This document shows positions 14,735 through 60,175 of a DNA stretch of 62,000 nt, one piece after another. Source of the stretch: Chiloscyllium plagiosum. Lineage: Eukaryota. The stretch spans positions 4,686,887 to 4,748,886 of the forward strand of contig NC_057753.1 of the NCBI RefSeq assembly GCF_004010195.1, written 5' to 3'. Each line of letters begins with the position of its first letter. The stretch's first letter is position 1. The notes beneath the pieces are model-generated. The model ran no database searches. It was not told where the DNA came from and saw only the letters and a list, made by a program, of their open reading frames with translations. Both the position numbers and the translations under genes were made by a program.

Positions 14735-15155
14735 TCGTTGTTGTCTCTGGGCAATGCCCCATTGGCCAAGCTGACCCAAAGCCCAGCATTCCCCGCGGTG
14801 AATCGACAAGCCGGAGAGCAGAGCGCATGCGCAGTCCTGGACGGTGTACGGACCATGCGCGGGATTACAAATGGCGGTCGATGAATGGTTCCTTTTCCTT
14901 TCCGTCCGAAAATGCTGAGAATGAGGCGGGGTGGAGGGAGCGGTAAGCCGGGCGGTTGGATGTAGAAGTTTCGCGAACGTTTTGTGTGAACTGCAATCCC
15001 CTGGTAAGAACCTCCCACTACTCCGTTGTGCACCAAACGGGGCAGAGGCTCCAGGCTTCCTCCCAGCAACAGGCCCCAGGACGTGGCCGCCATCGTTATT
15101 GGGGGCACTCGACAGGAGGACGCATGCGCAGCCGCCATATTTGTAGGGGGTATGT
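14735..15155 (+). promoter_or_regulatory. CpG-island promoter, exon 1 and start of intron 1 of ZNF-A
   Basis: CpG-rich; reverse CCAAT about 14761; NRF1-like GCGCATGCGC 14823-14832 and 15121; YY1-like AAATGGCGG about 14869; donors CG|GTAAGC (14943) and TG|GTAAGA (15004); acceptor tttacAG at 15408. Confidence 0.75.
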
Positions 15156-15517
15156 CCAACACAATCTGTCTGTTTCTCTTTCTTCTCTCGTTGAGGTTGG
15201 TGCCTTTTGTGGGTTCAGACCGTGTAGCATGTTCTCTTCCCTGAAGGATATCAGTTGGATTTTTATTACAACCCAGCATCTTTCATGGTAATTTGTTTCC
15301 CCAGTGCCAGCTTTACAAATTACAACATTTTTTCAGCTCAGCTATGCAACCTGCCATAATGTTTTTACACTCTGATTCCCTCTGTTCTATTTTAACTTAA
15401 ATTTACAGGGTATGAGAAGAGGTGGATTTACAGTCCGGAAACTAAAACCAAACAGAACATCAGTATCCAGCAGAGTCGCCCACTTTAACATCACCAGAAT
15501 AACGTCGGATTTTGAAA

Positions 15518-16387
15518 ATGGAAGGAGAAAGCACTGCTCACAGTGAGGAGAAACCACATAAGTGTTCTGTGTGTGGACGAGGCTTCCCACAATTACTTGG
15601 TCTATCAGAACATAAATGTAGGAACAACAAAGAGAAACCATGGAAGTGTGGGGACTGTGGGAAAGGATTCAGTTCCCCATCAAATCTTGAAACACATCGA
15701 CGCGTTCACACTGGGGAGAGGCCGTTCACCTGCTCCGACTGTGGGGAAGGATTCACTCAGTTATCCCACCTGCTGACACACCGGCGAGTGCACACTGGGG
15801 AGAGGCCATTCACTTGCTCTGAGTGTGGGAAGGGATTCACTCAGTCATCCCATTTGCTGACACACCAGCGAGTGCACACTGGAGAGAGGCCATTCACTTG
15901 CTTAGTATGTGGGAAGGGATTCACTCAGTTATCCCTCCTGCAAAGACACCAGCGAGTTCACACTGGAGAGAGGCCGTTCAGCTGCTCTGACTGTGGGAAA
16001 GGATTCATTCAGCTATCCCACCTGCTGAGACACCAGCGAGGCCACTCTGGAGAGAGACCGTTCACCTGCTCTGAATGTGGGAAGGGATTCACTGCCTCAT
16101 CCACCCTGATGGTGCACCAGCGTGTTCACACTGAGGAGACGCCATTCAAGTGCTCTCACTGCGGAATTGGGTTCAAGCACTCCTCTAACCTCACCGTACA
16201 CCAGAGAGTTCATACTGGGGAGCGGCCATACACCTGCTCCATGTGTGGGAAGGGATTTACTCGGTCATCCTACCTACTGACACACCAGCGTCTTCACACT
16301 GGAGAGAGACCATTCACTTGCTCCATGTGTGGGAAGGGATTCCCTTGTTCATCCCACCTGCTGAGGCACCAGCGGGTTCATAAGTAA
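15518..16387 (+). CDS. C2H2 zinc-finger protein ZNF-A (9 canonical fingers plus 1 degenerate; no KRAB/SCAN/BTB seen)
   Basis: Uninterrupted ORF from ATG 15518 (the track's 15512 start is TTG); CxxC-x12-HxxxH repeats with TGERP linkers; TAA at 16385. Confidence 0.93.
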
Positions 16388-16724
16388 CTACATTGGTTGG
16401 ATAGTGTACTTAATTCAGACACTATTATTTTATATTATTATTGATATGTAGGAGCCATTGGATAGATTATCTTAAATTTAATAGGGCACTGGGACTGAAT
16501 GAGCTATATCAAGGACAGTGAGGGAAATGAAAATTGAAATGGTGCAGGCTGTGGTCATAACTTTCCACATTCAATGGTGATGCCAGTTATTACACCCTTG
16601 TTGTAAAAATAATTGTGCAAAGATAAACCTTGCAGCTACAGGCCGGTCAGGTTCATTTTGTTGGTTGAGAAACTTTTAGAAGTAATAAGCTAGAATGTTA
16701 CTTAATAGCAATATTGTCAATTAC

Positions 16725-17110
16725 TAGGAGTCTGAGGGGGGTTTGTTATAGAAGTGTATAAGGTCATGACAGGCATGGATAGGGTGAAAGCGCTCAGTCA
16801 TTTTCCCAGGGTTGGGGAATTGAGGACGAGGGGGCATCCGTTTAAGGTTAGAGGGGAGAGAATGAAAGGGAACCTGAGGGGCAACATTTTTACACAGTGG
16901 GTGGTACACACATGGAATGAGCTGCCAGCGGAAGTGGTTGAGGCAGGTACATTAACAACATTTAAAAGGCATTTGTACAAATACATGGATAGGAAAGGTT
17001 TAGAAGGACATGGGCCAAGTGCAGGGAAATTGGGTTAGAGTGCATGGACATTTTGGTCGGCATGGACCAGTTTGGGCCAATAGGTCTGTCTCATGCTGTA
17101 GGCCTCTATG
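16725..17110 (+). mobile_element. CR1 LINE 3' end
   Basis: ORF 16754..17038 YKVMTGMDRV...WNELP, plus 3' tail. Confidence 0.9.
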
Positions 17111-21048: not shown

Positions 21049-21536
21049 AAGAATCGACGTTTCAGGCAAAAGCCATTCATCAGGAATACTCTGAAGGGTC
21101 TCTTTCTGTGCTGTACACCTCTATGACTATGACTCCTCGGATGCTGCCTGACCTGCTGTACTTTTCCAGCATCACACTCTCGGCTCTGATCTTCAGCATC
21201 TGGAGTCCTCACTTTCGCCTGGTTACAAAGATGAAACCCTTCCAAAACCAAACCAAGATTGAAAGTACCCCAGAATAAGACAATTCTGTTTTTGTGAATA
21301 CCTCTTTTACAGCCATACCCAAATGTGGGATGTGGGAAAAATAGTGTTACTTCTGCAATTCCATTTACTTATACAAAGTAAATGAGCTCACACCAGTGTG
21401 TAATTGTTTTAGCCAAGAGCTGAGTCAACAAGAATGCAAACTATGTGGAGGAAATACAGAATTGTTGTTGTATTAGCTAAAATTGTATGCCAGAATGAAA
21501 CGACTGCAAAACAATGATAGATATTACAGGCGAATA
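21049..21536 (+). repeat. Left arm of ~490-bp inverted repeat
   Basis: Reverse complement of 23067-23557 with only scattered differences; includes a PLE/CR1-tail junction and unique AT-rich DNA. Confidence 0.95.
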
Positions 21537-22280
21537 GATGGCGAATCGGAATAGGCAGGCGGGACGAGCACTGCGCCGGCTCCACCGCGTCCGCGTGACT
21601 GACGGCAGCTCCGGACCAATAGAGCAAGGGGGCGGTTTGGTCTTCCCACCAATCGGAGTAGGCAGGCGGGACTCCACGGGGCCTATCACGTGGAAGCACT
21701 GGGGCACGTCACATGACCACACAACGGCCGGCTCTCCTGCACAGGCGCAGTGGCACTGCGATTGAAGTCTTGAAGGAGAGAAGTTGGAAGAGATGGCGAA
21801 TGTGGAGCTACAGCGGACAGAGGGAACAAGACGGAGCTAGTGCGCGCTGGGAGGTTTAATAAACAGGCCTGCAGATCCGAATTAGAAACTACCGGCCCCG
21901 CGTTTGCAGCAAACGGAAAAACGGCTGCGGCCCGCGGTACCGTCGCCATCTTTCTCGGGGGCATTGTTGCTCGAGAGGAGTGCGTGGTCGCCATCTTTCT
22001 CGGGGGCATTGTTGCTCGAGAGGAGTGCGCGGTCGCCATCTTTCTCGGGGGCATTGTTGTTCGAGAGGAGTGCGTGGTCGCCATGTTTGTGGGGGGCATT
22101 CTGCAGCAGGGCGCGTGCGCAGCCGTCCTTTTGCAGGCGTGTTGGAAACTGAACGCCCTGCTGAATTTCTATGCTGGACTGAGAAAGGAATTTTTGTTTA
22201 CGGGATGTTGATTGGGCAAGATCTGTAAACGGGAAACGCAACGGAAGCATCGCATCTAGAGTCACTGGATTCACCAGGTA
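21537..22280 (+). promoter_or_regulatory. CpG-island promoter 2
   Basis: CCAAT boxes about 21616 and 21649; GC box about 21628; E-box CACGTG about 21687; YY1-like AGATGGCG about 21790; candidate donor CAG|GTACGA at 22278. Confidence 0.75.
21942..22135 (+). repeat. 45-bp tandem repeat (3 near-identical units plus 2 diverged)
   Basis: gtcgccatctttctcgggggcattgttgctcgagaggagtgcgtg units start at 21942, 21987, 22032 and 22077, with a degenerate unit at 22122. Confidence 0.95.
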
Positions 22281-22292
22281 CGAAATATCATT

Positions 22293-22517: not shown

Positions 22518-23066
22518 GAAATATCATTGCCCTATAGAAGCAAGAAGAGATTTGTCCATTCTCTCTGACGGTTGTGTGAGAAATAAAGCTCACACACTTC
22601 AATAATTGCAGTCCGAGGCAAAATCTGAATCAGTGGTGTCCTTTATTTTACCCTTGCAAAAGGGTGTGATGTCCAGAGACATACACATCCCAAATTCAAT
22701 TAATACACAACATTTATATAATTTGGTTTCTTTTGTTTTACATTGCTCCTCCCCTGTTTACATCTTCCACTTCCCTAAGACCGGCACCCATTACTCCTGT
22801 TTATCTCTTGCCTTATCCGGCCTTGTCTGTGACAAAATGCTGATTTCTGGCCTCACAAGGCCGTTTGACCTCATCCCGCTGTAGGTCATTGTTAGGCATA
22901 TTCTTCACCATTATCTACCCCCTCCATCTGTACCTTTCCCTGATCCTTATGACCCTTTTAATTGGGGTTTGTTCCTGTGTTTCTGTAAAAGTGGGAAACA
23001 GATGTTTATACCTACTGTTTGCACAGGCGTATCTAGCTTAACTTCCTCCCCTCACAGCATCTTATT

Positions 23067-23557
23067 TATTCGCCTGTAATATCTACCATTGTTTTGCTGT
23101 CACGTTTCATTCTTGCATACAATTTTAGCTAATACAACAACAATTCTGTATTTCCTGCACATAGTTTGCATTCTTGTTGACTCAGCTCTTGGCTAAAACA
23201 ATTACACACTGGTGTGAGCTCATTTACTTTGTATAAGTAAATGGAATTGCAGAAGTAACACTATTTTTCCCACATCCCACATTTGGGTATGACTGTAAAA
23301 GAGATATTCACAAAAACAGAATTGTCTTATTCTGGGATACTTTCAATACTGGTTTGGTTTTGGAAGGGTTTCATCTTTGTAACCAGGCGAAAGTGAGGAC
23401 TCTGGATGCTGAAGATCAGAGTCGAGAGTGTGATGCTGGAAAAGTACAGCAGGTCAGGCAGCATCCGAGGAGTCATAGTCATAAAGGTGTACAGCACAGA
23501 AACAGACCCTTCGGAGTATTCCTGATGAATGGCTTTTGCCTGAAAACGTCGATTCTT
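23067..23557 (-). repeat. Right arm of ~490-bp inverted repeat
   Basis: Reverse complement of 21049-21536; ORFs 21045..21278 (+) and 23327..23605 (-) translate almost identically. Confidence 0.95.
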
Positions 23558-23667
23558 CTGCTCCTCAGATGCTACCTGAACTGCTGTGCTTTTCCAGCAC
23601 CACACTCTCCACTTTCATTTTTGTAACACCCAGCTGTTGCTTGGCAGTTACCTTACATTCATGACAA

Positions 23668-24998
23668 AAGATGGAAAATTATAGGCCAATTAGCCTAACC
23701 TCGGTTGTTGGTAAAATTCTAGAATCTATCATTAAGGATGAGGTTTCTAAATTCTTGGAAGAGCAGGGTCGGATTAGAACAAGTCAACATGGATTTAGTA
23801 AGGGGAGGTCGTGCCTGACAAACCTGTTGGAATTCTTTGAAGAGGTGACAAGTAGGTTAGACCAGGGAAACCCAGTGGATGTGGTCTGTCTAGACTTCCA
23901 AACGGCCTTTGATAAGGTGCCACACGGGAGGCTGTTGAGCAAGGTGAGGGCCCGTGGTGTTCGAGGTGAGCTACTGGTATGGATTGAGGATTGGCTGTCT
24001 GACAGAAGGCAGAGAGTTGGGATAAAAGGTTCTTTTTCGGAATGGCAGCCGGTGACAAGTGGTGTCCCGCAGGGCTCAGTGTTGGGGCCGCAGCTGTTCA
24101 CATTATATATTAATGATCTGGATGAAGGGACTGGGGGCATTCTAGCGAAGTTTGCCGATGATACGAAGTTAGGTGGACAGGCAGGTAGTACTGAGGAAGT
24201 GGGGAGGCTGCAGAAGGATCTAGACAGTTTGGGAGAGTGGTCCAGGAAATGGCTGATGGAATTCAATGTGAGCAAATGCGAGGTCTTGCACTTCGGAAAA
24301 AAGAATACGAGCATGGACTACTTTCTAAACGGTGAGAAAATTCATAAAGCCAAAGTACAAAGGGATCTGGGAGTACTAGTTGAGGATTCTCTAAAGGTTG
24401 AGTCTGTGATTAAGAAAGCGAATGCAATGTTGTCATTTATCTCAAGAGGGTTGGAATATAAAAGCACCGATGTGCTACTGAGACTTTATAAAGCTCTGGC
24501 CATTTGGAGTACTGTGTCCAGTTTTAGTCCCCACACCTCGGGAAGGACATACTGGCACTGGAGCGTGTCCAGCGGAGATTCACACGGATGATCCCTGGAA
24601 TGGTAGGTCTAACATATGAGGAACGGCTGAGGATCCTGGGATTGTATTCATTGGAGTTTAGAAGATTAAAGGGAGATCTAATAGAAACTTACNNNNNNNN
24701 NNNNNGTGGACATAGCCTTAGAATTAGAGGGGGTAAATTCAGAACAGAAATGCTGAGACATTTCTTCAGCCAGAGAGTGGTGGGTCTGTGGAATTCATTG
24801 CCACAGAGTGCAGTGGAGGCTGGGATGCTAAATGTCTTCAAGGCAGAAATTGATAAATTCTTGATGTCACAAGGAATTAAGGGCTACGGGGAGAATGCGG
24901 GTAAGTGGAGTTGAAATGCCCATCAGCCATGATTGAATGGCGGAGTGGACTCGATGGGCCGAATGGCCTTACTTCCACTCCTATATCTTATGGTCTTA
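23668..24998 (+). mobile_element. Young CR1 LINE, 5'-truncated, RT domain largely open
   Basis: 306-aa ORF 23671..24591 with [28 protein letters not shown] and KFADDTK; frameshifted C-terminus; 3' tail. Confidence 0.96.
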
Positions 24999-25319
24999 CA
25001 TTCCATTATTGCTTCTGCGCCTGTCCCTTGATTTCATCAGCTAACAATAGTGTTGCTTGTAATTATGGCTACATATAAAACTACCTCTATTATTCAACCC
25101 CCACCACTTCCCACTTTTTCTCCCCTCCTGGAGAAGCCGGAGATTTGTAGCAGTGCAGACCAGGTGGCAGGTTTCTTTTTCCAACAGAAACTGAAATTGC
25201 TGGAGAAATTCAGCAGGTCCAGTAGCACCCGCAGAAAGAAAACAGAGATAACGTTCTTCTTCAGAATGCCAGTTCTCAAGTTTAAGAAGGGACTCCCTGC
25301 CGCATACACCCTGTTTTGG

Positions 25320-25470
25320 CCCCAGCAAGTTCACGCTGGGGAGAGGCTGTACACCGCAAAGAATGTGGGACCTTTCGATTCCCACTTACTGAGACACCCG
25401 CAAGTTCACAAATAAAGACAGTGACTTGATGTTTCTGCGAATCAGATCCAAGGCTGAACCTTGTTCATTA
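25320..25470 (+). pseudogene. ZNF 3'-end relic (last finger, stop, 3' UTR motif)
   Basis: QQVHAGERLY...SHLLRHPQVHK* followed by the family 3' UTR motif. Confidence 0.75.
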
Positions 25471-25827
25471 GAGTCTCTTTCTCTCCACAGATTTTGCTAG
25501 ACCTGCTGAGTTTCTTCAGCAATGTTTGTTCTTGTTTCAGATCTTCAGCACCTTGTTTTATCTTGGGTTCCTTTCCCTCATGAAGCATGTGGTGTGGGGC
25601 AAGCAGCTTTCGCGGTCACTTTGTTTTCCGAGCTTTGGCCCAATAAGTGATCGGATTCATTCAATTCCATTGCACGATCTGATTTTGGGGTTTTTTTTTT
25701 CCTGCATGTTCTCTCATTCCTGACGTAAACACTTGGCAGAGTATTTGGGTCGTGCAGCTGAATCCAAACTCCACCTCCTAGGATCTGGAGGAAATGCCAT
25801 TCTGAAGTAGCCTCAACAGCATCAGAT

Positions 25828-26095
25828 TTTGAACATGGAAAATCGAAATACCGTACATGTTTCGGAGTGCAGGCGAGATTTCACCCGATCACGTGATCCG
25901 TCAAAACACTAATGCGCTCACTTTGGGGGAAAAACCTTGGAAATGTGGAGACTGTGGGGAGGCATTCATCTACCCACCCCTGTTGGAAATACCTCGGCGC
26001 AGTCACACAGGGGAAAGGCCGTTCACCTGCACTGAGTGTGAAAAGGGATTTGCTAATATCTCTGCCCTACTGAAACACCAGCACACTCGCACTGA
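25828..26095 (+). pseudogene. ZNF 5' relic
   Basis: Family start context ttttgaacATGGAA (25835), frameshifted, then [11 protein letters not shown]...[16 protein letters not shown]; truncated at about 26095. Confidence 0.85.
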
Positions 26096-26589
26096 AGCTG
26101 GGGCGAGAGGAGCTCCCGCTGGAACAAAGGGTGGGACACTCAATAAAGTAACCCTCTGAGCATGCACCTCCAGAGGCTCAGCAAGCAAGCACGTCCCACC
26201 GACAGCAAGCACCGCCCCCTCCCCCTTCTTCAGGAAGAACACCGCCTTTCAGTGCGTCTTTCGAGGCAGTGAAAGTGGTGCGGGCGCCCACCCATCCCTT
26301 GCCAAGGCCGTGGCATATGCCTCTTTTCTCATGTCGGGCTGAATGTGACATTTGAACCCGAGCTGTTTTGTTAAATATGTAAAAAGGCATCCAGGAGGAG
26401 TGTGGGATGCAGAGAATGCATCTACCCCCTGCGTAGGAATGACTGGACGCCACCCCAGATGTTGTTTCAGTTGGTCCTGCATTTGCCACCATGCTCCCTT
26501 CTCCCCTCCCCAAATCCAGGAGCAACTCCTCCCCTCTCGTAAATAGCATGTAAAGGAAACTGGGAGAGTCCCATTAGGCTTTGTCTAAT

Positions 26590-30300: not shown

Positions 30301-31131
30301 CTCTATTATAATTACTCAGTGGTCCAAAGACCTGCTGAACGGGACCTAATCTGGAGGCCAGGGACCAACTGCTACAACCAGAGTTCAGCTTGATTGAAAG
30401 CAGCTCCGAACTGATCTGTCGGTTTCTCCACTTGGTTCTGTGAGCAACACCTGCCAAAAGATACTGGAAATCTGAAATAACAAGAACAATGTCTGGAAAT
30501 ACTCAGCAGGCCAGGTAGTATCTGTGGACAACAAAACAAAGCAGGGTGAGCAGGCTTACAGGAATAAAAATGGTGCAGGGTTTGATGGTCACTATAAGCT
30601 GAAAAGTTGAAGAGAAATGTGCAGGAAAAGCCAATCCTGACTGCAAGATCTTTTGGGAAGATGAAACAACTTTTGGTACTGCACTACATATATAGATAAC
30701 AGGGAAGATGAGCAAATGGGTTGCTGAATATTTTGCAAAATAGCAGGTATTAAGGAGCACCTTAAAAGAGGGTGGTCAGGTGCAGAGGTTTAGTGTGGAA
30801 TCTGTAGGCACTGTCATTTTTTTGTGGGACTGTACTCTTAAAATCAGGAATCCTCAGCAATCTAGAATTAAAGTGCACATCTCTTGTTGAGTTTGTAAGG
30901 GATTACAGAAGTAGTGAATTTTGAGTAGGTCCTGACTGTAAGTCAGTATTTATGGTCACTTTTCCCTATATGTATCTTTGAGTTCTCTCTCTCACACCTT
31001 TTTTTAAAATGTACTAAATCAATTTCCGGAAATAATATAAGGGCAGGAGTTGCTGATGAGAAACTCAAACAATCCAAATCGCATCAGCATCTGACAGCCT
31101 CCCAATTTATTATAATCTGAATACCCTTAGA

Positions 31132-32565: not shown

Positions 32566-32569
32566 AATA

Positions 32570-42453: not shown

Positions 42454-42860
42454 GTAAAATGGCTCAAGGATAATTACGATAGCAACATTCAGAGCTTTCA
42501 CAGCCTCATCCTACAGATACAGAACACTTCTTCTTGTTAATGTACAGCTACAGGTCTGCACTCTGACGGGTTCATTGCTCATCTTCAGCTCAAGACAGTT
42601 CCAAATTTAAATTTAAAAATGATGCTTGCAGAAAGAATGATGTGCTCTTGTAAAAATGAGAGATGTTGAGGGATCATGCTTATTCTAAAAGGGACAACTG
42701 AGATCAGAATGAAAATGGTTTAGTTCTAGATGTGTTGAATAGCAGCCATAACCAGATCCCAAACTCTGCTGTTACTGGTGAGCTCACTGATGTCTCAGCA
42801 GGTTGGATGCTGGACTATATCCCTTCCTACACAAGGAGCAGATGAATGGGCTCTCCCCAA
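42454..42860 (-). pseudogene. ZNF 3'-end relic (last finger plus 3' UTR)
   Basis: Minus strand ggggagagcccattcatctgc...aacctgctgagacatcagtgagctcac; the 3' UTR is paralogous to 43030-43350. Confidence 0.75.
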
Positions 42861-43530: not shown

Positions 43531-44406
43531 TTACTCCATGTTGTGAACCCGCTGGTGTCTCAGCAGGTGGGACGATCGAGTGAATCCCCTCCCGCACTCA
43601 GAACAGGCAAATGGTCTCTCACCAGTGTGGACTCGCTTGTGTAACACGAGGTTGGAGGAGTGTGTGAATCTCTTTCCACACTCTGAGCAAGTGAATGGCT
43701 TCTCCCCAGTGTGAATTCGCCGGTGCTCGGCGAGTTGAGACGAGCCCCTGAACCCAGTCCCGCAGTGAGAGCACCTGAACGGTCTCTCATCAGTGTGAAC
43801 GCGTTGATGGTAAATCAGTTCTGCAGAACTTTTAAAGCATTTCTCACAGTCTGGGCACATAAAGGGTCTCTCCCCAGTGTGAATCCGCTGATGTGTCAGC
43901 AGGTGGGTTGACCGGGTGAATCCCTTCCCACACTCAGAGCAGGAGAACGGCCTCTCCCCGGTGTGGATTCGCCGGTGTATAGCGAGGTCAGATGATCGCC
44001 TGAAGCCAGTCCCACAGTGAGGGCACCCGAATGGTCTCTCATCGGCATGAACCCGTTGATGGTACACCAGTTCGTCGGACCTTTTGAAGCATTTCTCACA
44101 GTCTGGGCATTGAAAAGGTCGCTCCCCGGTGTGAATTCGCTTGTGTGTTACGAGGTGGGATGATCGGGTGAATCCCTTCCCACACATAGAACAAATGAAT
44201 GGTCTCTCTCCAGTGTGAACACGTTGGTGTGTCCGCAGGGTCGTTGAGCATGCGAATCCCTTACCACACTCAGGGCACATGAACGGCCTCTCCCCAGTGT
44301 GACTGCGCCGATGAGTTTCCAACGCGGACGGGGATCTGAATCCCTTCCCGCAGTCCTCACATCTCCACAGTTTCTCCCCAGGGTCAATGCTGCTCTCTCC
44401 TTCCAT
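43531..44406 (-). CDS. C2H2 zinc-finger protein ZNF-B (10 fingers)
   Basis: Open ORF from ATG 44406 (the track's 44412 start is TTG); 10 canonical fingers; acceptor candidates at about 44552 and 44533. Confidence 0.93.
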
Positions 44407-44599: not shown

Positions 44600-44995
44600 T
44601 CTGAATGTGCGCCCTGGGGCACACTGCCCCTCATAAACATGGCAGCCCCGCGGAACATTGCCCCCAATAAATATGGCGACCGGTTTTTTTTTCACCGCCG
44701 TTTGATGCAAACGCGGGGTCGGACGTTTCTAATTTGCATCCAGAAGTCTACATTATGTGTTTATTTTTTTAAAAAAAATCTCCAGTCCATAATAGTTTCT
44801 CCCATTCACTGCTGTCCGTCCCCCTTTACCGTCCTCTTCACCTCCCGCCCTGGACAGACAGTGATCGCGGTGGCTTTGCGAAGTCGCTGCGGCGGCCCAG
44901 TGGTTCCGCCTGTCGTCCGCTCCGATTGGTTCGAGCCCAGACATCCGCCGCTTCTCATTGGTCCGAAGCCGCTGTCAATCAACTGGGATCTATTG
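44600..44995 (-). promoter_or_regulatory. CpG-island promoter of ZNF-B
   Basis: Minus-strand CCAAT boxes (attgg about 44925 and 44957); CpG-rich; two copies of the cluster motif at 44622-44680. Confidence 0.75.
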
Positions 44996-45029
44996 TGACG
45001 AGTGTCTCTTTCGCTGTTGCCCTGGGATG

Positions 45030-47483: not shown

Positions 47484-48362
47484 TCATTGTGGTTGCTTGT
47501 GAACTCGCTGGTGCCTCAGCAGGTTGGACGAATTAATGAATCCCTTACCACACTCAGAGCATGTGAATGGCCTTTCCCCAGTGTGAGTGCGCCGATGTAT
47601 CACCAAGATGGATGAACGCGTGAATCCCTTTCCACACTCTAAGCAGATGAAGAGCCTCCCTCCAGTGTGAACCCGCTGGTGGGTGAGCAGATGGGATGAC
47701 CGAGTGAATCCTGTCCCACACTCAGTGCAGGTGAATGGCCTCTCCTCGGTGTGAATTCGCTGGTGAACAGCGAGTTGAGATGATCGCTTGAATCCAGTCC
47801 CACAGTGGGAGCACCTGAACGGTCTCTCGTCAGTGTGGAGGCGTTGATGTCGCATCAGTTCCCCAGAACTTTTAAAGCATTTCCCACAGTCTGGGCATTT
47901 AAAAGGTCTTTCGTCAGTGTGAACACGTTGGTGTGCGAGGAGATTTGTTAACTGAGAGCATGACTTCCCACAGTCAGAGCAGATGAACGGTCTCTCCCCA
48001 GTGTGAACCCGCTGGTGTGTCTGCAGGGCAGAGGACTGAGTGAATCCCTTCCCACAGTCAGGACAAGTAAACGGTCTCTCCCCAGTGTGAACCCGCTGGT
48101 GTGTCTTTAGGGTGGACAATTGAGAGAATCCCTTTCCACACTCAGAGCAGGTGAACGGCCGCTCCCCTGTGTGACTGCGCTGATGAGTGTCCAGCTCAGA
48201 TGGGGATTTGAATCCCTTCCCACAGTCTCCACATTTCCATGGTTTACCCCCGCTGTGGCTGCAGTCATGTTCGGACAGGCCCGGTGATTGGCTGAAGCTG
48301 GGCCCACACACACAACACGAATCTGATTGCTCACTACAGTGAAGGGCGCTGTTTCCTTCCAT
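47484..48362 (-). CDS. C2H2 zinc-finger protein ZNF-C (10 fingers)
   Basis: 292-aa open [11 protein letters not shown]...; 10 C2H2-spaced units; acceptor tttcacAG at 48475-48474. Confidence 0.93.
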
Positions 48363-49387
48363 GTTTAAAATCCAGTGATCTTAAAAGGTTCCAACGAATT
48401 GGGCAACTTCATCAGATCCTAATATGATTTCGGTTTCACCTTTCCGACCTCAAATCCTCCCACTTAATATCTCCTGTGAAACTGTTCTAAAACAGAAAGC
48501 TGAGAGTGAGAGGAAAACCCACCAAAAACACAAACGCATGTTGTGAAACTCAGTGGAATGACTCCAGTCATCTGTGGGACATGCACGAGAAATAGTGACT
48601 ACAAAAGCTGTTGATTGTCATAAAAACTAAACACGTTTGCCAATGTCTTCTAGAAAAGGGAACCTACAGCCCAGTCTGGATTTACACCAGACACTTGTCT
48701 CGATGGGAGGACAGGAAGATAGATATGGGAGTGGCAGAGGGATTTTATGTATTTGCAACTTGACTGGAATTCAGACGGAATCTCCCACTTCCGCAACCTC
48801 CATGATCTGGAAGGACCAGGGTAGCAGGTCTAGGTGAACACCATCAGCTCCAGGTCATACACCATCCTGATTTGTCTGACCTCCAGTTCTGGATAAGTGG
48901 AAAGTTCCTCCGTTTAAATATTAGGAAGACGGAAGCCACTGTCTCAGCCTTCACAACAAACTTTTCTCCCTCACCACTGCCCCCATCCCTGACCTTGGTA
49001 ACTGTATGAGGCTGAAACAGATTGTAAACAACTATTACAAAATGTTTCACTCTAAGATGAGCTTCTAGCCACACATTCCATTATCACCAAATTGCCTGTA
49101 TCCACATGGCTCCCCTCCCTATCTCTGTAACCTCCTGCAGACTCAACACTGTAGGTCTCTGTAGGAGTAACTACCCTCCACCCTAGTCTCAACTTTTCTG
49201 GTGAAACTTTTGTTTATGTCCAGACTAAACTATCCTAACACACTCCCAGCCAGCCTTCCACATTCAACCTCCCTATAATCTCGAGGTCATCCAAACGCTG
49301 GCTGGCCATGTGTCGTCTTGCACGCGTTTTCTTCATCCACCACCAGTCTGTTCACTGACATATCTGTTTAACAAGCTCTAGTGTTTT

Positions 49388-52300
49388 AGTCATAGAGTCA
49401 CAGAGACATACTGCATTGAAATAGACTGTTCATCCCAACTTGTCGATGCTGACCAGATATCCTAAATTAATCTACTCCCAAAAACCAACATTTGGCCATA
49501 TCACTTCCCCACTACCACCCCAGCCCCCAAACCCTTCCTATTCACGTACCTACCCAGATGTCTTTTAAATGCTGCAGTTGTACCAGCCTCTACCATTTCA
49601 TCTGGCAGCTCATTCCATACATGCACCACCCTCTGCGTGAAAATGTGACCCCCTTCGGGCCCTTTTAAATCTTTCCCTTCTCACCTTCAACCTGTGTCCT
49701 CTGGTTTTGGACACCCCCACCCTGGGGAAAAGACCTAGACTATTTACCCTTTCCATGCCCCTCATGATGTTGTAAGTCTCTGCATGGTCACCCCTCAGCC
49801 TCTGACACACCAGAGAAAAAAAACCCCCGAGCCTATTCAGCCTCTCCCTGTAGCTCAAACGCTCCAACACTGGCAACATTCTGTCAATCTTTTCTGAACC
49901 TTTCAGGTTTAACGGCATTCCTCCTGTAGCCGGAAGACTAGAATTGAATGCAGTATTCCAAAACTGGTCTAACAATGTCCTGTACAGTCACAACATGACC
50001 TCCCAACTCCTATACTCAGTGTTTTGACTAATAAAGGAAAGAATACCAAACACCTTCTTCACTACACTGTCTACCTGCGACTTCACTTTCAAGGAACTAC
50101 GAACCCGAGTTCCAAGGTCCGTTTAGTCGGCAATACTCCCAGGACCTTACCATTATAAGTCCAAAATGTAGCACCTCACACTTATCAAGATTAAATTCCA
50201 TCTGCCACTCCTCGGCATAAGATCAGTTTATGTGATCAAGGTCCCGCTGTACTATTCTGCTATACACTACACTTCCAATTTTGGTGTCAGGTGCAAATTT
50301 GCCAGCTATACCTCCTATGACAACATCCAAATCATCTATATAAATGACGAAAAGCAGTGGACCCAGCACTGATCCCTGTGGCACACCATCTGTCACAGGT
50401 CTCCCAGTCTGAAAAGCATCCCTCAACCACCACCCTGTGTCTCCTACCTTCCAGCCAATTTTGTATCCAAATGGCTAGTTCTCCAAATGGCTGTCGATGA
50501 TACAAATATCTCAGCAAGGGGTCCAGCAATCCCTTCCCTCGCTTCCTAGTAAGTTCTGGGATACAGCTGATCAGATCCCGGAGATTTATCCACCTTTATG
50601 CATTTTAAGATGTCCAGCACCTCCTCCTTTGTATTGTTGACACTTGTCAAGATATCACAATTTATTTCCTCAAATTCTCTAGCTTCCATACCTTTTTCCA
50701 CTGATGCAAAATACTCGTTTAGTGTCTCACCCATCTCCTGTAGTTCCACATGTAGACAGCTTTGCTGATCCTTAAGAGGCCCTATTCTCTTCCGAGTTAT
50801 TCTTTTGTCCTTCATGTATTTGTAGAAACCCTCTTAACCCTATTTACCAAAGCCATCTCATATCCCCTTTCTGCCCTCCTGATTTCCCTCTTAGTGGGCG
50901 GCATGGTGGCAGTGGGCGGCACGGTGGCACAGTGGTTAGCACTGCTGCCTCACAGCGCCAGAGACCCGGGTTCAATTCCCGCCTCAGGCGCCTGATTGTG
51001 TGGAGTTTGCACATTCTCTCCGTGTTTGCGTGGGTTTCCTCCCACAGTCCAAAGATGTGCAGGTCAGGTGAATTGGCCATGCTAAATTCTCCGTAGTGTT
51101 AGGTAAGGGGTAAATGTAGGGGTATAGGTGGGTTGCGCTTCGGCGGGTCGGTGTGGACTTGTTGGGCCGAAGGGCCTGTTTCCACACTGTAAGTAATCTA
51201 ATCTAATCTAATCTAATCTAATTCAAAAAAATATACTCCTACTATCCTTATACTCCTCGAAAGATTCACTTAATCCCTGCTGTCTATACCTGACATATGC
51301 TTCCTTCTTTTCCTTGACCAGAACCTCAATTTCTCTACTAATCCAGCATTCCCCAAATCTACCGACCTTGCAACTGGACTCTCGTTATCTCATTTTGGAA
51401 GGCTTCCATTTTCCAGCCTTCCCTTTACCTGTGTATATCCACCCACAATCAACCTTTGAGAGCTCTTGCCGAATGCCATCAAAGCTGGCCTTCCTCCAAT
51501 TTGGAACTCTGATTTTTAGATCACATTTATCTTTTTCCATCACGATCTTAAAACTAATAGAATTATGATCACTTGCCCAAAAGCGCTCCCCCACTGACAC
51601 CTTAATTATTTGCCCTGCCTTTTTTCCTAAGAGAAGGTCAAGGTTTGCTCCTTCTCTAGAAGTCCATCCACATACTCAATCAGAAAATGTTCTTGTCCAC
51701 ACTTTACAACTTCCTCTCCGTCCAAGACTTCAATGTTATAGCAGTACCAGTTTGTGTTTGGAAAGTTAAAAGCTGCTACTATAACCATCCTATTATTTTT
51801 ACAGACAACTGTGATCTCCTCACAGATTTCCCGCTGACCATTGGGGCATAAAATAGTACAATCCCATTAACGTGATCATCCATTTCTTATTTCTCAGTTC
51901 CATCCAAATAATTTCACTGGACGTACTCTCTAGAATATCCTTCCAAAGTACAGCTGTAATGTTATCCCTACTCAAACATGCCGCTCCCCCTTCTTCCCCT
52001 GCCCTTCCTGTAGCGTCTATACCCTGGAACATTACGCTGTCAGTCCTGTCCTGTCCATCCCTGAGCCATGTCTCTGTAATAACTGTGATATCCCAATCCC
52101 ATATTCCCAACCATGCCCTGCGTTCATCTGCCTTCCTGGTTAGGCCTCCTGCATTGAAACAAATGAAGTTTAATTTCTGTTTTCTTCCTGCCTACCTTGA
52201 ACATTTGACCTGCTCCTTTCCCAACTGCACCAGCCTCAGGGTGATCCCTTTTCTCACTATCTCTCTGAATTCAACCCCTGCCTTACTAATTTATGTCCTC

Positions 52301-52900
52301 CTGGGTAGCTCTAGCAAATCTCCCTGCCAGTATATTAGTCCCCTTCCAATTCAGTTGCAACCTGGCTTTCTTATACATGTCACTTGTACCCCAGAAGAGA
52401 TTCCAATGATCCAAAACTGAACATTCTTCTCCTCAGCCACATATTCACGTACTCTATCCTCCTATTCCTCCCACCTTCCCTTGCACGTGGCACCAGGAGT
52501 AATCCAGTTATTATTACCCATGAGGATCTACTTTATAACCTTCTGCCTAACCTTCATTTCTCCCCACAGAATCTCATCCCTTTCTCTTCCTTTGTCGTTG
52601 GTTCCAATGTGTACAATGACGTCCTGCTGGTCCCTCTCCCCTTTGAGAACATTCTGCACTCTCTCTGAGATATCCTTGACCACGGTACCTGGGAGGCAAC
52701 ACACCATTCTGATATCTCATTGCCAGCCACAGAAATGTCCGTCTGTGCCTCTGACTAGAGTCCGCTGTCAAAATCAATCTCTTGGAACTTTGCATCACCC
52801 TCGTTACAGTAGAGCAAAGTCTCAGAAATCTGGCTGTCAGTGCTAAATTCCTCTGAGAGTCCATCACCACATGCGCAACATGCCTACCCCTCCTACCTTT
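49388..52900 (-). mobile_element. Long decayed CR1 LINE (ORF1 esterase region, endonuclease, RT, 3' tail)
   Basis: DITVITETWL and SDHNSI (endonuclease), [10 protein letters not shown] (RT). At about 52590-52710 the minus strand reads VCCLPG...IVHIGTND, the SGNH esterase of CR1 ORF1. Confidence 0.9.
50896..51222 (+). mobile_element. HE1-like SINE, young, inside CR1
   Basis: (TCTAA)n tail; 18-bp head duplication; small internal deletion. Confidence 0.95.
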
Positions 52901-52944
52901 CCAATAAATCAAACTGCATCTACATCCATGAGGTAACCCATCTA

Positions 52945-55870
52945 GCTGACAGGAGCAGAGCAGGGACAGGAATGGTTGTTGCTGGTTCTAGGATTTAGAT
53001 GTTTCAGTAAGAACAAAGATGGTAAAAGAGGGGGAGGTGTGGCATTGTTGGTCAAGGACAGTATTACATTTGCAGAAAGGATGTTTGGGGACTCATCAAC
53101 TGAGGTAGTATGGGTTGAGGTTAGAAAAAGGAAAGGAGAAGTCACCCTGTTGGGAGTTTTCTATCGGCCTCCGAATAGTTCCAGAGATGTAGAGGAAAGC
53201 ATAGCAAAGATGATTCTCGATAGGAGTGAGACAGACGGGGCAATTGTCATGGGGGCTTCAACTTTCCAAATATTGACTGGGAACACAATAGTACGAGTAC
53301 TATAGATGGATCAGTTTTTGTCCAGTGTGTGCAGGAGGGTTTCCTGACACAGTATGTAGACAGGCCAACAAGGGATGAAGCCACATTAGATTTGGTACTG
53401 TGTAATGAGCCCGGCCAGGTGTTAGACTTGGAAGTAGGTGAGCACTTTGGTGATAGCGATCACAATTCTGTTATGTTTCCTTTGGTGATAGAAAGGGATA
53501 GGTGTATACCACTGGGCAAGACTTACAGCTGGGGGAAAGGCAATTACGATGCTATTAGGCAAGATTTAGGAAGCATAGGATTGGGAAGGAAACTGCAGGG
53601 GATGGGCACATTAGAAATGTGGAGCTTATTCAAGGAAAAGCTCCTGTGTGTCCTAGATAAGTATGTACCTGTCAGGCAGGGAGGAAGCTGTAGAACGTGG
53701 GAGCCGTGGTTTACGAAGGAAGTGGAATCTCTGGTTGAGAGGAAGAAGAAAGTTTATATTAGGATGAGATGTGAAGGCTCAGTTAGGGCGCTTGAGGGTT
53801 ACAAGATAGCCAGGAAAGACCTAAAGAGAGAGCTCAGAAGAGCCAGGAGGAGACATGAGAAGTTGTTGGCGGATAGGATCAGGGTGAATCCTAAGGCTTT
53901 CTATAGGTATTTAAAGAATAAAAGAATGACAAGAGTAAGATTAGGGTCAATCAAGGATAGTAGTGGGAAGTTGTGTGTGGAGTCAGAGGAGACAGGGGAA
54001 GCACAAAATGAATATTTTTCGACAGTATTCACTCGAGAAAATGACAATGTTGTTGAGGAGAATACGGAGATACAGGCTACTAGACTGGGGGTGGGATTGA
54101 GATTCACAAGGAAGAGGTATTAGAAATCCTGCAGAGTGTGAAAATAGATAAGTCCCCTAGGCTGGATAGGGTTTATCTTAGGATCCTCTGGGAAGCCAAG
54201 GAGGAGATTGCCGAGCCTTTGGCATTGATCTTTAAATCCTCATTGTCTACAGCAATAGTGCCAGAAGACTGGAAGATAGCAAATGTGGTTCCCCTGTTCA
54301 AGAAGGGGAGTAGAGACAACCCTGGTAATTATAGACCAGTGAGCCTTACTTCTGTTGTTGGCAATGTTGGAAAAGGTTATAAGAGATAGGATTTATAATC
54401 ATCTAGAAAAGATGAATTTGATTAGGGATAGTCGGCACAGCTTTGTGAAGGGTGGGTGGTGCCTCATCTACAAGAATAGTGCCAGAAGACTGGAGGATAG
54501 CAAATGTTGCTCCCTTGTTCAAGAAGGGAAGTAGAGACAACCCTGGAAATTCTAGACCTATCAGCCTTACTTTGGTTGTGGGTAAAGTGTTGGAAAGGGT
54601 TATAAGAGATAGGATGTATAATCATGTAGAAAAGAATAAGTTGATTAGGGTTAGTCAACATGGTTTTGTGAAGGGTAGGTCGTGCCTCACTAACCTTATT
54701 GAGTTCTTTGAGAGGTGGATGAGGGTAAAGTGGTTGTTGTGGTATATGCATTTCAGTAAGGTATTTGATAAAGTTCCCCATGGTAGGCTATTGCATAAAA
54801 TACGGAGGCATGGGACTGAGGGTGATTTAGCGGTTTGGATCAAACATTGGCTAGCTGAAAGAAGACAGAGGGTACTGGTTGTTGGGAAATATTCATCCTG
54901 GAGTTCAGTTACTAGTGGTGTACCGCAAGGATCTGTTTTGGGTCCACTGCTGTTTGTCATTTATATAAATGACCTGGAAGAGGGCGTTGAAGGTTAGTAA
55001 ATTGGTGGATGGCACTAAGGTCAGTAGAGTTGCGAATTGTGACAAAGGATGTTGTAGGCTACAGAGAGAAACAGATAAGCTGCAGAGCTGGGCTGAGAGG
55101 TGGCAAATGGAGTTTAATGCGGACAAGTGTGAGGTGATTCACTTTGGTCGGAGTAACCGGAATGCAAAGTATTGAGCTAATGGTAAGATTCTTGGTAGTG
55201 TAGATGAGCAAAGAGATCTCGGTGTCCATGTACACAGATCCTTGAAAGTTGCCACCCAGGTTGACAGGGTTGTTAAGAAGGCATACAGTGTTTTAGCTTT
55301 TATTAATAGAGGAATCGAGTTCCAGAACCATGAGGTTATGCTACAGCTGTACAAAACTCTGGTGCGGCCGCACTTGGAGTATTGTGTACAGTTTTGGTCA
55401 CCGCATTATAAGAAGGATGTGAAAGCTTTGGAAAGGATGCAGAAGAGATTTACTAGGATGTTGCCTGGTATGGTACGAGGAAAGGCTGAGGGATTTGAGG
55501 CTGTTTTCGTTAGAGAGAAGAAGATTGAGAGGTGACTTAATAGAGACATATAAGATAATCAGAGGGTGAGATAGGGTGGACAGGGAGAGCCTTGTTCCAA
55601 GTATGGTGACAGCGAGCACAAGGGGGCATTAAATTGAGGGGTATAGATATAGGACAGATGTCAGAGGTAGTTTCTTTACTCAGAGAGTAGTAAGGGTATG
55701 GAATGCTTTGCCTGCAATGGTAGTAGATTCACTAACTTTAAGTGCATTTAAGTCATCATTGGACAAGCATATGGACGTACATGGAATAGTGATGGGCTTC
55801 AGATTGGTATGATAGGCAGCGCAACATCAAGGTCCGAAGGGCCTGTACTGCGCTGTAATGTTCTATGTTC
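52945..55870 (+). mobile_element. CR1 LINE ORF2 (endonuclease to RT) plus 3' tail, frameshifted
   Basis: GGGVALLVK, GVFYRPP, LDLVL and SDHN (endonuclease); [10 protein letters not shown] (RT); tail gtaatgttctatgttc. Confidence 0.95.
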
Positions 55871-56047
55871 TGACAGGTGTATTTGGGGTTTTACTATCTT
55901 CCCACATCACACCCTGTGACTCTTGTAAATGCCTCATTGCCTGTACCTGCTGCTCCAAACTATCCATGTGATCCGATAGGATTCACCATGTCAGCGTGTT
56001 TGTGACACAGTTGCCTAAATGTAGGAGTTCTGAACATTTGTCGAAAT

Positions 56048-56532
56048 TAGAATCCCTACAGTGTGGAAACAGGCCCTTCAGCCCACCAAGTCCACACCAA
56101 CCCTCCGAAGAGTATCCCACCCAGACCCATTCCTCTACCCTATTACTCTATATTCCTGAAGAAGGACTTATGCCCGAAACGTCGATTCTCCTGTTTCCTG
56201 GATGCTGCCTGACCTGCTGCGCTTTTCCAGCGACACATTTTCAGCTCTGATCTCCAGCATCTGCAGACCTCACTTTCTACTCTATATTTACCCTGACTAA
56301 TGCACCAAACCTACACATCCCTGAACACTATGGACAATTTAGCATGACCAATCCACCCTAACTTGGAAACCTTTGGATTGTGGGAGGAAACCGGAGCACC
56401 TGGAGGAAACCAATGCAGACACGGGGAGAACGTGCAAACTCCACACAGACTGTTACCCCGAGGCGGGAATCGAACCTGGGTCCCTGGTGCTGGGGGGCAG
56501 CAGTGCTAACCGCTGAGTTACCGTGCCGCCCC
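56048..56532 (-). mobile_element. HE1-like SINE interrupted by PLE-terminus insert
   Basis: Insert 56155-56277 flanked by tactctatatt (56144-56154 and 56278-56288), starting at a CTGAAGA hammerhead core. Confidence 0.88.
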
Positions 56533-57111
56533 TAACTGTAGCGGCCCTTTGGCTCATCATGTCCATCAAACATCAGTGAAAGACAGCAATAGGTGGATAT
56601 GGATTCAGATCCACAACATAGAGGTCACCCCAGCTACAGAGCCATGGAACCTCTCACAGATAAAAGCACAGCATTAAAAGCTCGAACTTGTCAATGGACG
56701 GTCACAAATACTCACCTTTCAAACAATTATTGTGCTTTGAAAAATCCCCTACTGGAGTCGGCAGCCGGAAATCTATGGGAAGAAGTGAAGTCAGAGAAAA
56801 ATCTCACAGTTCAGGAATTACCCAGTGAGTAGGCGATGTCACTTCACGTCCTTCTCAAATGTTCTGTAAGAAGAAGTGTACAAGTGTGAGCAAGAGACCG
56901 ACATTCACAAGCGACAAAACATTTCACTTGGTCTGAGTTTAGTGTACATAACTCCTGCCCTGAAAAAGGGATTTCAAAACTCTATCCCTGTTAGTACGGG
57001 ATAGAAATCCACAGCATCCCCTCCTCCTGGCCCAGGCTGACCGCATGGTCCCTGCTGCACACTGGCCCTCGTCGTGGTCAGCAGTCTCTTGACTGAAGGC
57101 TGGCATCTGCT

Positions 57112-59060
57112 CAGAGTCGATAAAGTGTGGAGCTGGAAAAAGCACAGCAGGTCAAGCAGCATCAGAGGAGTAGGAGAGTCAACATTTCAGGTCAGGACCC
57201 TTCATCAGGATTGGGGAAGGGGCTGAGAAATAAACAGAGGGAAGAGGAGTAGAGCTGGGGAAAAAGGTAGGCGGGATGGTAGGAGGTGATTGCAATTCGT
57301 CAGTGGGAGGAAGGGTGGAGCAGATAGGCGGGAAGGAAGGTGGACTGGCAGGGTCAGGTCAAGGGGGTGGGGCAGAGAGGGAGGGCTGGACCTGAGTGGA
57401 GATTGGGAAGCTGGTGAATTCCACGTATGATTGAAAGCTCCCTCGGTGGAAGATGAGGCGTTCTTCCTCCAGTGTGCATGTGGTCCAAGCCAGGACGGAC
57501 ATGTCGTCAAGGGAGCTGGAAAGGATAGCAACCAGAAGGTGGGCTTGTTGGTGTGTACGGACTGTAAATATTTCCTGAACTGATCTCAAAAGTTTACTCA
57601 CGGTCTCTCCGATGTAGAAGAGAATACATCTGGAACAATGGATGCAATATGTTAGAGGAAGTGCAGGTGATTCCTTAGGGCCTTGGATGGAGTTAAGAGG
57701 GGAGATGTGGTGGCAGGTGCAGGGAAAGGTGCCACGTGCGGCGGAGAGGTTGGTGGGGAGTGTGGACCTAATGATGGGAGTTGCAGAGGGAACAGTCCCT
57801 ACGGAAAGTGGATAGGGGTGGTGGGGTCAGAATGCAGGTGGCAAAAATGGCTGAGGATGATGTGTTGGATTTGCAATGTGAGGACCCAGCCAGGGGGACT
57901 CTATCCTTGTTGCGGTTGGTGAGGGCTTTGAAAGCAGAGGTGAGGGAAATGAAGGAGGTGCAGTTGAGGCCATTACATTTCACAGGGGAAGGGAAATTAC
58001 GGTTCTTGAAGTAGGCGGACAACTGGGATGTCCTGCAGTGGAATCGCTCACCCTGAGAGCAGGTACAGCAGAAGCAGAAGATTTGGGAGTAAAAGATCGC
58101 ATTTCTGCAGGAGGGGCAGCGGGAGGAGATGTCATCAAGGTAGCTGTGGGAGTCGATGGGTTTGAAATAGATGTCAGTGCTAGTTAGTTGGTGGAGATGG
58201 AGATGGAGATGGGGAGGTCCAGAAAGTGGGGGGGGGGGGGAGGTGTTAAGCGATTGTCCAGGTGAATGAGTTGAAACTTTATTGCTGGAACAGCACAGCA
58301 NNNNNNNNGGTGGAAGGTGTTAGTGTAGTGGATGAACTGTTCAACCTCCTCGTGGGAGCACGAGGTAGCGCCTGTGCCCGAAACGTCGAATCTCCTGTTC
58401 CCTGGATGCTGCCTGACCTGCTGTGCTGTTCCAGCAATAAAGTTTCAACTTTGATCTCCAGCATCTGCAGACCTCACTTTCTCCTCCAGGTGAATGAGGT
58501 CAGGATGGAAGATGTGGGTGAAGTTAATGAACTGTTTGAGCTCCTCATAGGAGCACGAGGCAGGGCAGATACAGTCATCAATGTAGCGGAGGAAAAGGTG
58601 GTGCTGGTGTGAATGCAGCAGAGGGATTATTCCATGTATCCTACGAAGAGGCATAGCTCAGGCCTGTGTGGGTACCCATAGCCACCCCGCTGGTTTATAG
58701 GAAGTGGGAGGATTCAAAGGAAAAGTTGTTCAGGGCGATGACCGGTTCCGCCAAGCGAATGAGAGTGTCGGTGGAAGCGCATCGATTGGGTCTGCAGGAG
58801 AGGCAGAAACAGAGTGTTTTTAGGCTCTCCTCATTGGGGGAGGGGTAGGGTGGAATACAGATGTAGAGAGACTGAATGTCCATGGTGAAGATGAGGTTTT
58901 GGGGACTGCAGAATTGAAAGTCATGGAAAAGGTGAAGGGCGCGAGTGGTGTCCTGAACATAGGTGGGGAGTTCTTGGACCAACGGGGTAGGGTGGAGTCA
59001 AGAGGAGATGAGTTCAGTGGGACAGCAGCAGACAGAGACTATTGATAGACTGGGGCAGTG
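57112..59060 (-). mobile_element. Penelope-like element, RT through terminal repeat, decayed
   Basis: YVQDT...LIFTMDIQSLY (58695..58982), FLRYIDD (58445..58654), LEEERLIF; hammerhead about 57177-57210. Confidence 0.9.
58271..58484. mobile_element. Inverted PLE-terminus insert with 14-bp TSD (contains gap)
   Basis: tccaggtgaatgag at 58257-58270 and 58485-58498; inverted arms ttgaaactttattgctggaacagcacagca. Confidence 0.75.
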
Positions 59061-59067
59061 ATCAAAG

Positions 59068-59410
59068 AATCCCTACAGTGTGAAAATAGGCCATTAGGCC
59101 CAACAAGTCCATGCTGACCCTCCACAGAATATCCCTCCCAGACTCATTCCCCTACCCTATTAACTCTACACTTATCCCTGACTAATGCATACATCATTGA
59201 ACACGATGGGCAATTTAGCATGGCCAATTCACCCTAACCTGCACATCTTTGGACTCCGGGAGAAAACTGGCGCACCCAGAGGAAACCCACACAGACAGAG
59301 GGAGAATGTGCAAACTCCACACAAACACTCGCCCCCGAGGCTGGAATTGAACCTGGGTCCCTGGCACTGTGAGGCAGCAGTGCTAACCACTGAGCCACCA
59401 TGCCGCATCG
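59068..59410 (-). mobile_element. HE1-like SINE
   Basis: Full length, moderately diverged. Confidence 0.9.
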
Positions 59411-59799
59411 CCCTCCACCTCCTCCTCCGCTACCTTGATGATTGTATCAGCACTGCCCTGTGCTCCCACGAGGGTGCTTGAACAAGTTCATCAACGCCAC
59501 CAGTCAAGTTTATCAATTTTGGGTAGGACACAGGCCAGGACGGGGAATGGGAAACTAAAAGGTGGGAGGCTGCGGATGGGGGAATCTCCCAAGTCAAGTT
59601 TCTGTCCTTGGTCTTCATGTAACTGAACACAGCCACAGAACTTTGGGCCAAGGCATCCTCTGAGCTAGGGTACTGCGAGACCAGGATTTTCTTATTTTTC
59701 CCCCTCTGCCTCTGCTCTGCATCATCAGTAAGACATTGGGCGTGAAAGGCAAATACAGCCTGGTCGACAAGTTGTCTCCATCCTGAACAATAGGCAGCA

Positions 59800-60175
59800 A
59801 GCTCCGCCCATTCATTCCAAACATTGCCCCCGACAAAGATGGCGGTCGCACACGGCCCCCCCCCGCGCGATGCCGTCGCCCCCGACAAAGATGGCGGCCG
59901 TCAGACCGGGGCCTGTCCCTTGGGAGCAAGCTTGGAGCCGTTGCTCCAGTTGGAACAAACGGGGCACTGGGAGATTCTCATTCGGGGTTTGTAGCTCACG
60001 TCAGACAGTTTACGGGTCGTGTCCGTCCACCCGCGGCATCTATCGCCGCTCCCGTCCCGCCTCATTTGGTAACCTTTCCGGAGCCAAGGAATGAAAGTCG
60101 GTCCACGGCCATATCGCGCTCCGCGCATGCTGTATTCGCGACGGTCTCTGCGCATGCGCACTGCTCTCCTGGTTG
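59800..60175 (-). promoter_or_regulatory. CpG-island promoter 4
   Basis: CpG-rich; NRF1-like GCGCATGCGCA about 60150; two copies of gcccccgacaaagatggcgg at 59826 and 59878. Confidence 0.7.

Follow-up and report, generated by a model that had tools for sequence, protein, structure and literature searches.

In a 62-kb window of the shark Chiloscyllium plagiosum genome (RefSeq assembly GCF_004010195.1, contig NC_057753.1, positions 4,686,887 to 4,748,886; the window is this whole stretch, numbered here from its first letter), four CpG-rich islands, designated A to D, share an oriented 22-bp element, GYCGCCATNTTTNTNGGGGGCA, in the neighborhood of C2H2 zinc-finger (ZNF) genes. Sequence comparison argues that the element is real and constrained, and that it recurs mainly because the four islands derive from one ZNF promoter region. 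Within the window GYCGCCATNTTTNTNGGGGGCA is found at 10 places with at most two mismatches (five exact, four with one mismatch, one with two), compared with a mean of 0.01 matches in shuffled windows (n=100), and allowing three or four mismatches adds no further site. A position weight matrix (PWM) built from the copies scores them at 30–38 bits, the next-best site in the window reaching 12.4, and finds no copy outside the four islands. When each island was left out of the matrix in turn, the omitted copies still outranked all other sites (lowest 20.9 vs. 12.0 in the same run). These data bear out a sequence-only reading of the same DNA, which had proposed a recurrent oriented element confined to four islands, with at least two copies in each: islands A, C and D carry two copies and island B carries four.

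The copies of island A lie at 15086..15107 and 15131..15152 (+); the first has an imperfect left half, CGCCATCGT. In the second copy a C-to-T change creates a donor-like GGG/GTATGT within the G-rich box (15147–15155, +). Island B holds an array at 21942..22098 (+), with copies starting at 21942, 21987, 22032 and 22077, which forms a tandem repeat of period 45 bp (3.5 copies, 94%) whose first three 22-mers are identical. On the minus strand, island C has a pattern match at 44659..44680 and a second copy at 44625..44646 that has lost the CpG and carries one G-box change, and island D has pattern matches at 59877..59898 and 59825..59846. Of the earlier coordinates, the two for island D are each off by one base. 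Two other details of that reading did not survive: its 25-nt consensus ending in (A/T/G)TG fits only 4 of the 10 copies, the conserved unit being 22 nt, and the site at 22122, which had been called a "degenerate copy", is unlike its neighbor at 11 of 22 positions and absent from the 22 best PWM sites. Copies are spaced with periods of 45, 45, 34 and 52 bp (A to D), which keep neither reading frame nor helical phase, and the intervening spacers (23, 23, 12 and 30 bp) are also unlike in sequence. There is evidence of copy turnover, in that B1 to B3 show no differences and D1 and D2 differ from each other at two positions but from either A copy at four. In orientation the element is sense to the ZNF open reading frames (ORFs) starting at 15518 (+), 44406 (−) and 48362 (−). 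The proposal that it points along the next ZNF gene or relic holds for these three ORFs and is not borne out for island B, which has no intact gene: the next relic is of the A/E type, whereas B is of the C type.

All 10 copies fall within CpG-rich stretches of 376–636 bp with a GC content of 0.53–0.62 and a CpG observed/expected ratio of 0.93–1.07, against window averages of 0.46 and 0.37, respectively; copies C1 and C2 narrowly miss the CpG segment that a sliding rule calls there. Island A (14780..15155, +) features an NRF1-like palindrome at 14822 and donor-like GTs at 14943 and 15004, and its paralogue, island D (59800..60185, −), features the palindrome at 60160 and a donor-like GT at 59999. 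Island B (21530..22165, +), after which no intact ORF follows, has CCAAT boxes at 21616 and 21649, and its paralogue, island C (44600..45000, −), has them at 44961 and 44929, with a donor-like GT at 44829. The NRF1 and CCAAT factor names are labels that we presume for these core motifs. In every island the element lies downstream of the core, as had been proposed, be it the palindrome (A, D) or the two CCAAT boxes (B, C). These features suggest that the four islands are promoters. Start sites tend to lie near cores of this kind, and with this promoter geometry the first element copy would lie ~170–250 bp downstream of the start. A loose sliding CpG rule passes 15 segments in the window, of which 11 lack any element copy; these comprise two ZNF coding regions, five SINE-like (short interspersed nuclear element) repeat matches and four other segments, and none is a recognizable non-ZNF promoter. 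Islands A and D also contain CT(A/G)CAA..CCCC (14991–15001, + and 59984–59994, −), which may resemble the ACTACA..TCCCA promoter motif of ZNF143/THAP11 type.

Donor-like sites upstream of the element in A, C and D score 4–5 of 7 and are followed by acceptor-like sites, at 15408 ahead of the ORF of gene A and at 44496 ahead of that of gene C. An intron spanning the element is favored because, without splicing, the leader would contain 13 upstream ATGs in A and 9 in C. A position in intron 1 is thus likely, if unproven, from these sequence features.

The islands are related to one another well beyond the element. Alignment extends over ~400 bp between islands A and D (score 210, shuffle maximum 38), which have the NRF1-like palindrome in common, and over ~450 bp between B and C (score 135, shuffle maximum 39), which have both CCAAT boxes in common. 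The flanking island DNA had been described as diverged beyond alignment, which is contradicted within the A/D and B/C pairs and largely correct between them: between the two island types the alignable parts are the element and a single 35-bp block. This second block follows the pattern TnAGAAnCnnCC-n4-CnnCGTT(n)TGnnnCAAnnGG (TnAGAAnC...CGTTTGnnnCAAACGG) and has exactly four matches in the window, one per island, the pattern having been built from these four; the sequence-only reading had overlooked it. It lies 17–47 bp upstream of the first element copy in all islands: at 15005..15040 (+) in A, 45 bp upstream; at 21882..21916 (+) in B, 25 bp upstream; at 44698..44732 (−) in C, 17 bp upstream; and at 59946..59980 (−) in D, 47 bp upstream. 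Its end is an imperfect palindrome, near-perfect in B and C (CGTTTG-N3-CAAACG), and might bind a dimer. When the window was searched with a profile built from the four islands, six matches arose at E<1e-5, in these islands only; three weak matches represent the palindrome read backwards. On this sequence evidence, all four islands are descendants of one ancestral 5' region, and the element would be common to them because they descend by gene duplication.

The same comparisons suggest which gene each island belongs to. The A sequence that begins immediately past the element can be aligned to the 370 bp preceding ORF E (score 102, shuffle maximum 40); D and ORF E therefore appear to be a copy of gene A, split by ~11 kb, with island D, 11.5 kb away, as the probable 5' end of ORF E. 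The intervening DNA (48730–59800) is repeat-rich, with 41% covered by other copies in the window; the corresponding island-to-ORF distance in gene A is 366 bp. Island B tracks C for ~110 bp past the element, after which there is no ORF. It is bracketed by a 339-bp inverted duplicate that is 96% identical (21203–21539 and 23064–23402), and a recent rearrangement may explain why no coding exon lies behind island B.

Against this background of duplication, the 22-mers are unusually well preserved. The first and last copies compared between islands are identical at 16–19 of 22 positions (73–86%) with no indel, whereas 4-fold degenerate sites between the ZNF ORFs are identical at 40/79, 44/91 and 33/71 positions (46–51%). 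Among eight non-redundant copies (B1 and B3 were dropped as identical to B2), mean pairwise identity is 0.83 over bases 1–12, 0.50 over bases 13–15 and 0.89 over bases 16–22, compared with 0.33 for ungapped 20-bp flanks; the proposed constraint on the G-rich half is evident in this difference. Twelve of the 22 columns are invariant in this set, for which a star tree gives P 5e-12 at a neutral identity of 0.48 and P 0.004 at a promoter-level identity of 0.72. For invariance of the right half (GGGGGCA), the corresponding values are 1e-5 to 3e-4 and 0.05–0.10. T14 is invariant in all 10 copies, and at the local gap rate a 22-bp unit free of indels would be expected with P about 0.007. The spacing between the halves is likewise constant in 10/10 copies; it had been taken as the sign of a composite site, a claim that weakens given that, at the local indel rate, chance alone might preserve such spacing (P about 0.4). 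By these estimates the element is conserved beyond neutral expectation.

Eight of the 10 copies fit the YY1 consensus CGCCATNTT in their left half, upholding the earlier assignment of this half, and position 9 of the element, which varies among copies, coincides with the free N of the consensus. Both the consensus and the methylation sensitivity of YY1 binding are given in the available text of PMC1904287. We infer that the left 12 bp are a YY1 site. Opposite-facing YY1-like cores (AAATGGCGG, AGATGGCG) without the G-rich tail also occur upstream of the A array (AAATGGCGG at 14869, +) and of the B array (21536 and 21791, +). The right half was compared with the INSM1 consensus T(G/T)(C/T)(C/T)(T/A)GGGG(G/T)C(G/A), as given in the accessible part of PMC3125357, and rejected as an INSM1 site: no copy matches exactly (1–3 mismatches), and 116 sites in the window fall within two mismatches. 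A coding origin was also considered, with a sense AAIFVGG-like reading and codon-like variable positions, and set aside: the periods of 34 and 52 bp break the frame, and there is no variation at third positions. Among 466 candidates for the antisense frames of the islands there were no relatives, and a further search gave five matches to short-period repeat proteins; the two of these that are named come from frog and sturgeon. A CTCF site was likewise rejected on comparison by eye: GCC.CCA and GGGGGC are common to the CTCF consensus and the element, which however lacks the 8-bp insert. The GGGGGCA half is best described as a putative second constrained site for a G-rich-binding factor, whose exact spacing from the YY1 site may or may not matter.

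Taken together, the reading that we favor, and consider somewhat probable, is that of an inherited YY1 array which, together with a further G-rich site under constraint, would support transcription from the islands, with copy number left to drift. The element would have belonged to the 5' control region ancestral to a chondrichthyan family of short ZNF genes that encode C2H2 fingers only. With every duplication the CpG island, the 35-bp block and the array of 22-bp sites would have been copied; purifying selection would then have retained the 22-bp sites amid drift in the spacers and at synonymous sites, and copy number would have changed, to four in island B, through local duplication or conversion. 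By analogy with the arrays of Yy1 intron 1 and L1 Tf, YY1 would bind the unmethylated island downstream of the presumptive start site and support transcription.

Several observations weigh against this explanation. When the element is compared with gap-free aligned promoter sequence within pairs, its excess conservation gives p=0.12 for A-D and p=0.056 for B-C. The 300 bp upstream of A-B, A-C and C-D align no better than shuffles, and Fisher tests on these three comparisons therefore set the element against noise. The element was picked for being conserved, which makes the test post hoc and subject to ascertainment, and a star tree overstates the independence of the copies. The comparison comprises four islands in one window, without a non-ZNF promoter as a control. 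Two of the 10 copies (A1 and C2) miss the YY1 consensus, each by one base. Island B keeps the element, and has expanded it, though no intact gene follows; it also lacks a donor-like site 5' of the element, and "intron 1" may therefore not hold for all islands.

The alternatives differ in what they make of these features. An obligate composite site or long footprint, in which the full 22 bp would be recognized either by YY1 with a partner at fixed distance or by one poly-zinc-finger protein, perhaps from the family itself, and would serve to coordinate the whole shark ZNF family or to feed back on it, is in our estimation unlikely. It would account for a G-box half as conserved as the YY1 half, for the invariant T14 and the lack of indels, and for the single strand used in all islands, and the 9–10 fingers of the ORFs would suffice for a 22-bp site. 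However, the indel-free 4-bp junction alone is unremarkable, the invariance of the right half is marginal at promoter-level identity, INSM1 is never matched exactly and its near-matches abound in the window, and the three ORFs have different finger contact residues. Shared ancestry also accounts for the sharing without a circuit. The cluster-wide co-regulatory or autoregulatory circuit envisaged in the sequence-only reading is accordingly not supported: sharing follows from duplication, and nothing ties the element to the cluster's own proteins. The broadest form of this idea, that the 22-bp unit and the 35-bp block comprise a family-wide address on KRAB-less shark and ray ZNF genes, a single fixed-geometry site for YY1 and a dedicated partner or family member that coordinates a fast-evolving ZNF repertoire, we regard as slightly less probable still.

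A lack of any special function is more doubtful again. The element might be a transposon or minisatellite remnant carried in the ancestral gene and kept alike by descent and gene conversion, as is consistent with the paralogy of the islands, with the non-significant excess conservation within pairs, and with island B being a young tandem array between recent inverted duplicates with no intact gene beside it. A remnant of this kind sits poorly with 22-mers that persist between spacers of differing length and sequence, and with 4-fold sites that have fallen to near 50% identity. Island DNA has at most one other copy in the window, whereas stretches beside B and D reach 14–15, and no element copy occurs away from the islands in the 62 kb. 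To a role in RNA we assign the lowest probability of all. Intronic G-runs act as splicing enhancers of the hnRNP H/F type, and the G-box could serve as such behind weak donors, or the unit could form a hairpin, GYCnCC:GGnGGC; the element is always on the sense strand and downstream of the donor-like sites in A, C and D, and isolated units fold as hairpins of −5 to −11 kcal/mol in which 95% of cells pair. However, two-sided compensatory changes are absent, every one of 500 shuffles scores as high as the real copies, the hairpin contains a central G.G mismatch, the four arrays in context show no gain in folding over shuffled sequence (z −1.5 to +0.5), Rfam returns no match, and the YY1-type conservation pattern of the loop is left unexplained.

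The ZNF complement of the window comprises three intact ORFs and a series of broken relics. ORF A (15518..16387, +; 289 aa) encodes nine canonical C2H2 fingers, ORF C (43531..44406, −; 291 aa) ten fingers, and ORF E (47484..48362, −; 292 aa) has ten finger matches. Pfam detects zinc-finger or small cysteine-cluster families only, and no KRAB or other effector domain, in the three stop-to-stop ORFs, with unseen upstream coding exons possible. Among the 120 matches listed, the highest identities are to the stingray Hemitrygon (73%) and the sawshark Pristiophorus (69%), and the ORFs appear to fit a chondrichthyan ZNF family; exact look-up of the proteins found none of the three, which for ORF C is no test, since it was queried without its first Met. 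Broken relics lie at 7840–8090 (−), 25300–26100 (+), 30860–31740 (+), 32190–32550 (+), 35720–36120 (+, weak) and 42770–42860 (−), of which those at 25.5–26.1 kb and 30.9–31.7 kb keep an A/E-type intron end. No element copy was found beside any relic, and these two also lack an island. When seven upstream regions were aligned with the islands, four scored no higher than shuffles and the other three were marginal, with island B only (34–38 vs. shuffle maxima of 27–31). Long ORFs at 48730–59800, 5646–9813 and 23665–24914 are presumably pieces of CR1-type long interspersed nuclear elements. Runs of N, as assembly gaps or masking, occupy 7169–7544, 24693–24705 and 58301–58308.

Beyond the window, the two-copy pattern occurs nowhere in the metagenome contigs or prokaryote genomes searched, and the single pattern nowhere in viral contigs; these collections hold little or no shark DNA, and such blanks are uninformative on distribution. 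The single pattern has eight lone matches in metagenomes, seven of them inside open frames of more than 200 codons and none with any similarity to ZNF sequences or, outside the motif, to the islands, and we read these as chance. A literature search, whose scope did not extend to supplements, most subscription papers or motif databases, returned no account of this element or of shark ZNF promoters; in the available text of the whale shark genome paper, C2H2 genes appear only in enrichment lists. As a 22-bp tag that outlives near-saturated synonymous sites, the element would be a practical marker for shark ZNF promoters, and would offer a convenient way to test the idea of an extended YY1 site. 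Should it prove to be no more than an inherited YY1 array, it would be a further instance of a known pattern. To our knowledge, little is known of how KRAB-less ZNF families are controlled in fish.

Several known systems share parts of this arrangement, as described in the accessible portions of the papers cited. The intron-1 tandem array of the Peg3-DMR, an imprinted mammalian locus, has ~10 YY1 sites (GGCGCCATCTT) over 2.5 kb (PMC4196374); here too, a zinc-finger gene inside a ZNF cluster has several YY1 sites at its 5' end, embedded in tandem repeats. Unlike Peg3, the shark islands have 2–4 sites in 56–157 bp that recur at paralogous genes, and they carry a GGGGGCA tail that the available text of PMC4196374 does not mention for Peg3. 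Intron 1 of Yy1 contains five YY1 sites in two orientations, which regulate YY1 itself and are needed for promoter activity (PMC2743690). In both systems the sites are conserved and spacer length and sequence are not, near the start of intron 1 (the presumed position in the shark), but the shark copies face one way, carry the tail and are found at paralogous ZNF genes. Mouse L1 Tf monomers have a tested, methylation-sensitive YY1 site, GTCGCCATCTTG, with synergy between copies (PMC11602158). The B copies are identical to this site at 11 of 12 bases, and both systems consist of head-to-tail units with one YY1 site each; in contrast to the long monomers of this retrotransposon promoter, the shark islands display no dispersed-repeat behavior in the window. 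The LTSM of ribosomal-protein genes, ATC-N7-ATC, is bound by NonO/SFPQ (PMC3262029) and resembles the shark element in layout, being oriented, bipartite, of fixed spacer, downstream of the start, mostly in intron 1 and a mark of one gene class; it differs in sequence, and its genes are unrelated, whereas those of the shark are paralogues. The KRAB-less ZNF genes of zebrafish chromosome 4 are lineage-specific, with two promoter classes and coordinated expression (bioRxiv 10.1101/2021.08.09.455629; PMC5690287; bioRxiv 10.1101/2022.11.29.518450). The shark set resembles them as a KRAB-less, lineage-specific family with two putative promoter classes, but the zebrafish classes are TATA/sharp versus broad, and neither "YY1" nor "CCAAT" occurs in the main text of bioRxiv 10.1101/2021.08.09.455629. 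A G-rich extension of the YY1 site is undescribed for the arrays compared here, as far as the available text of these sources goes. With the consensus present in 8 of 10 copies, clustered sites and spacers less conserved than the sites, the shark islands would belong, by sequence, among the YY1 arrays.

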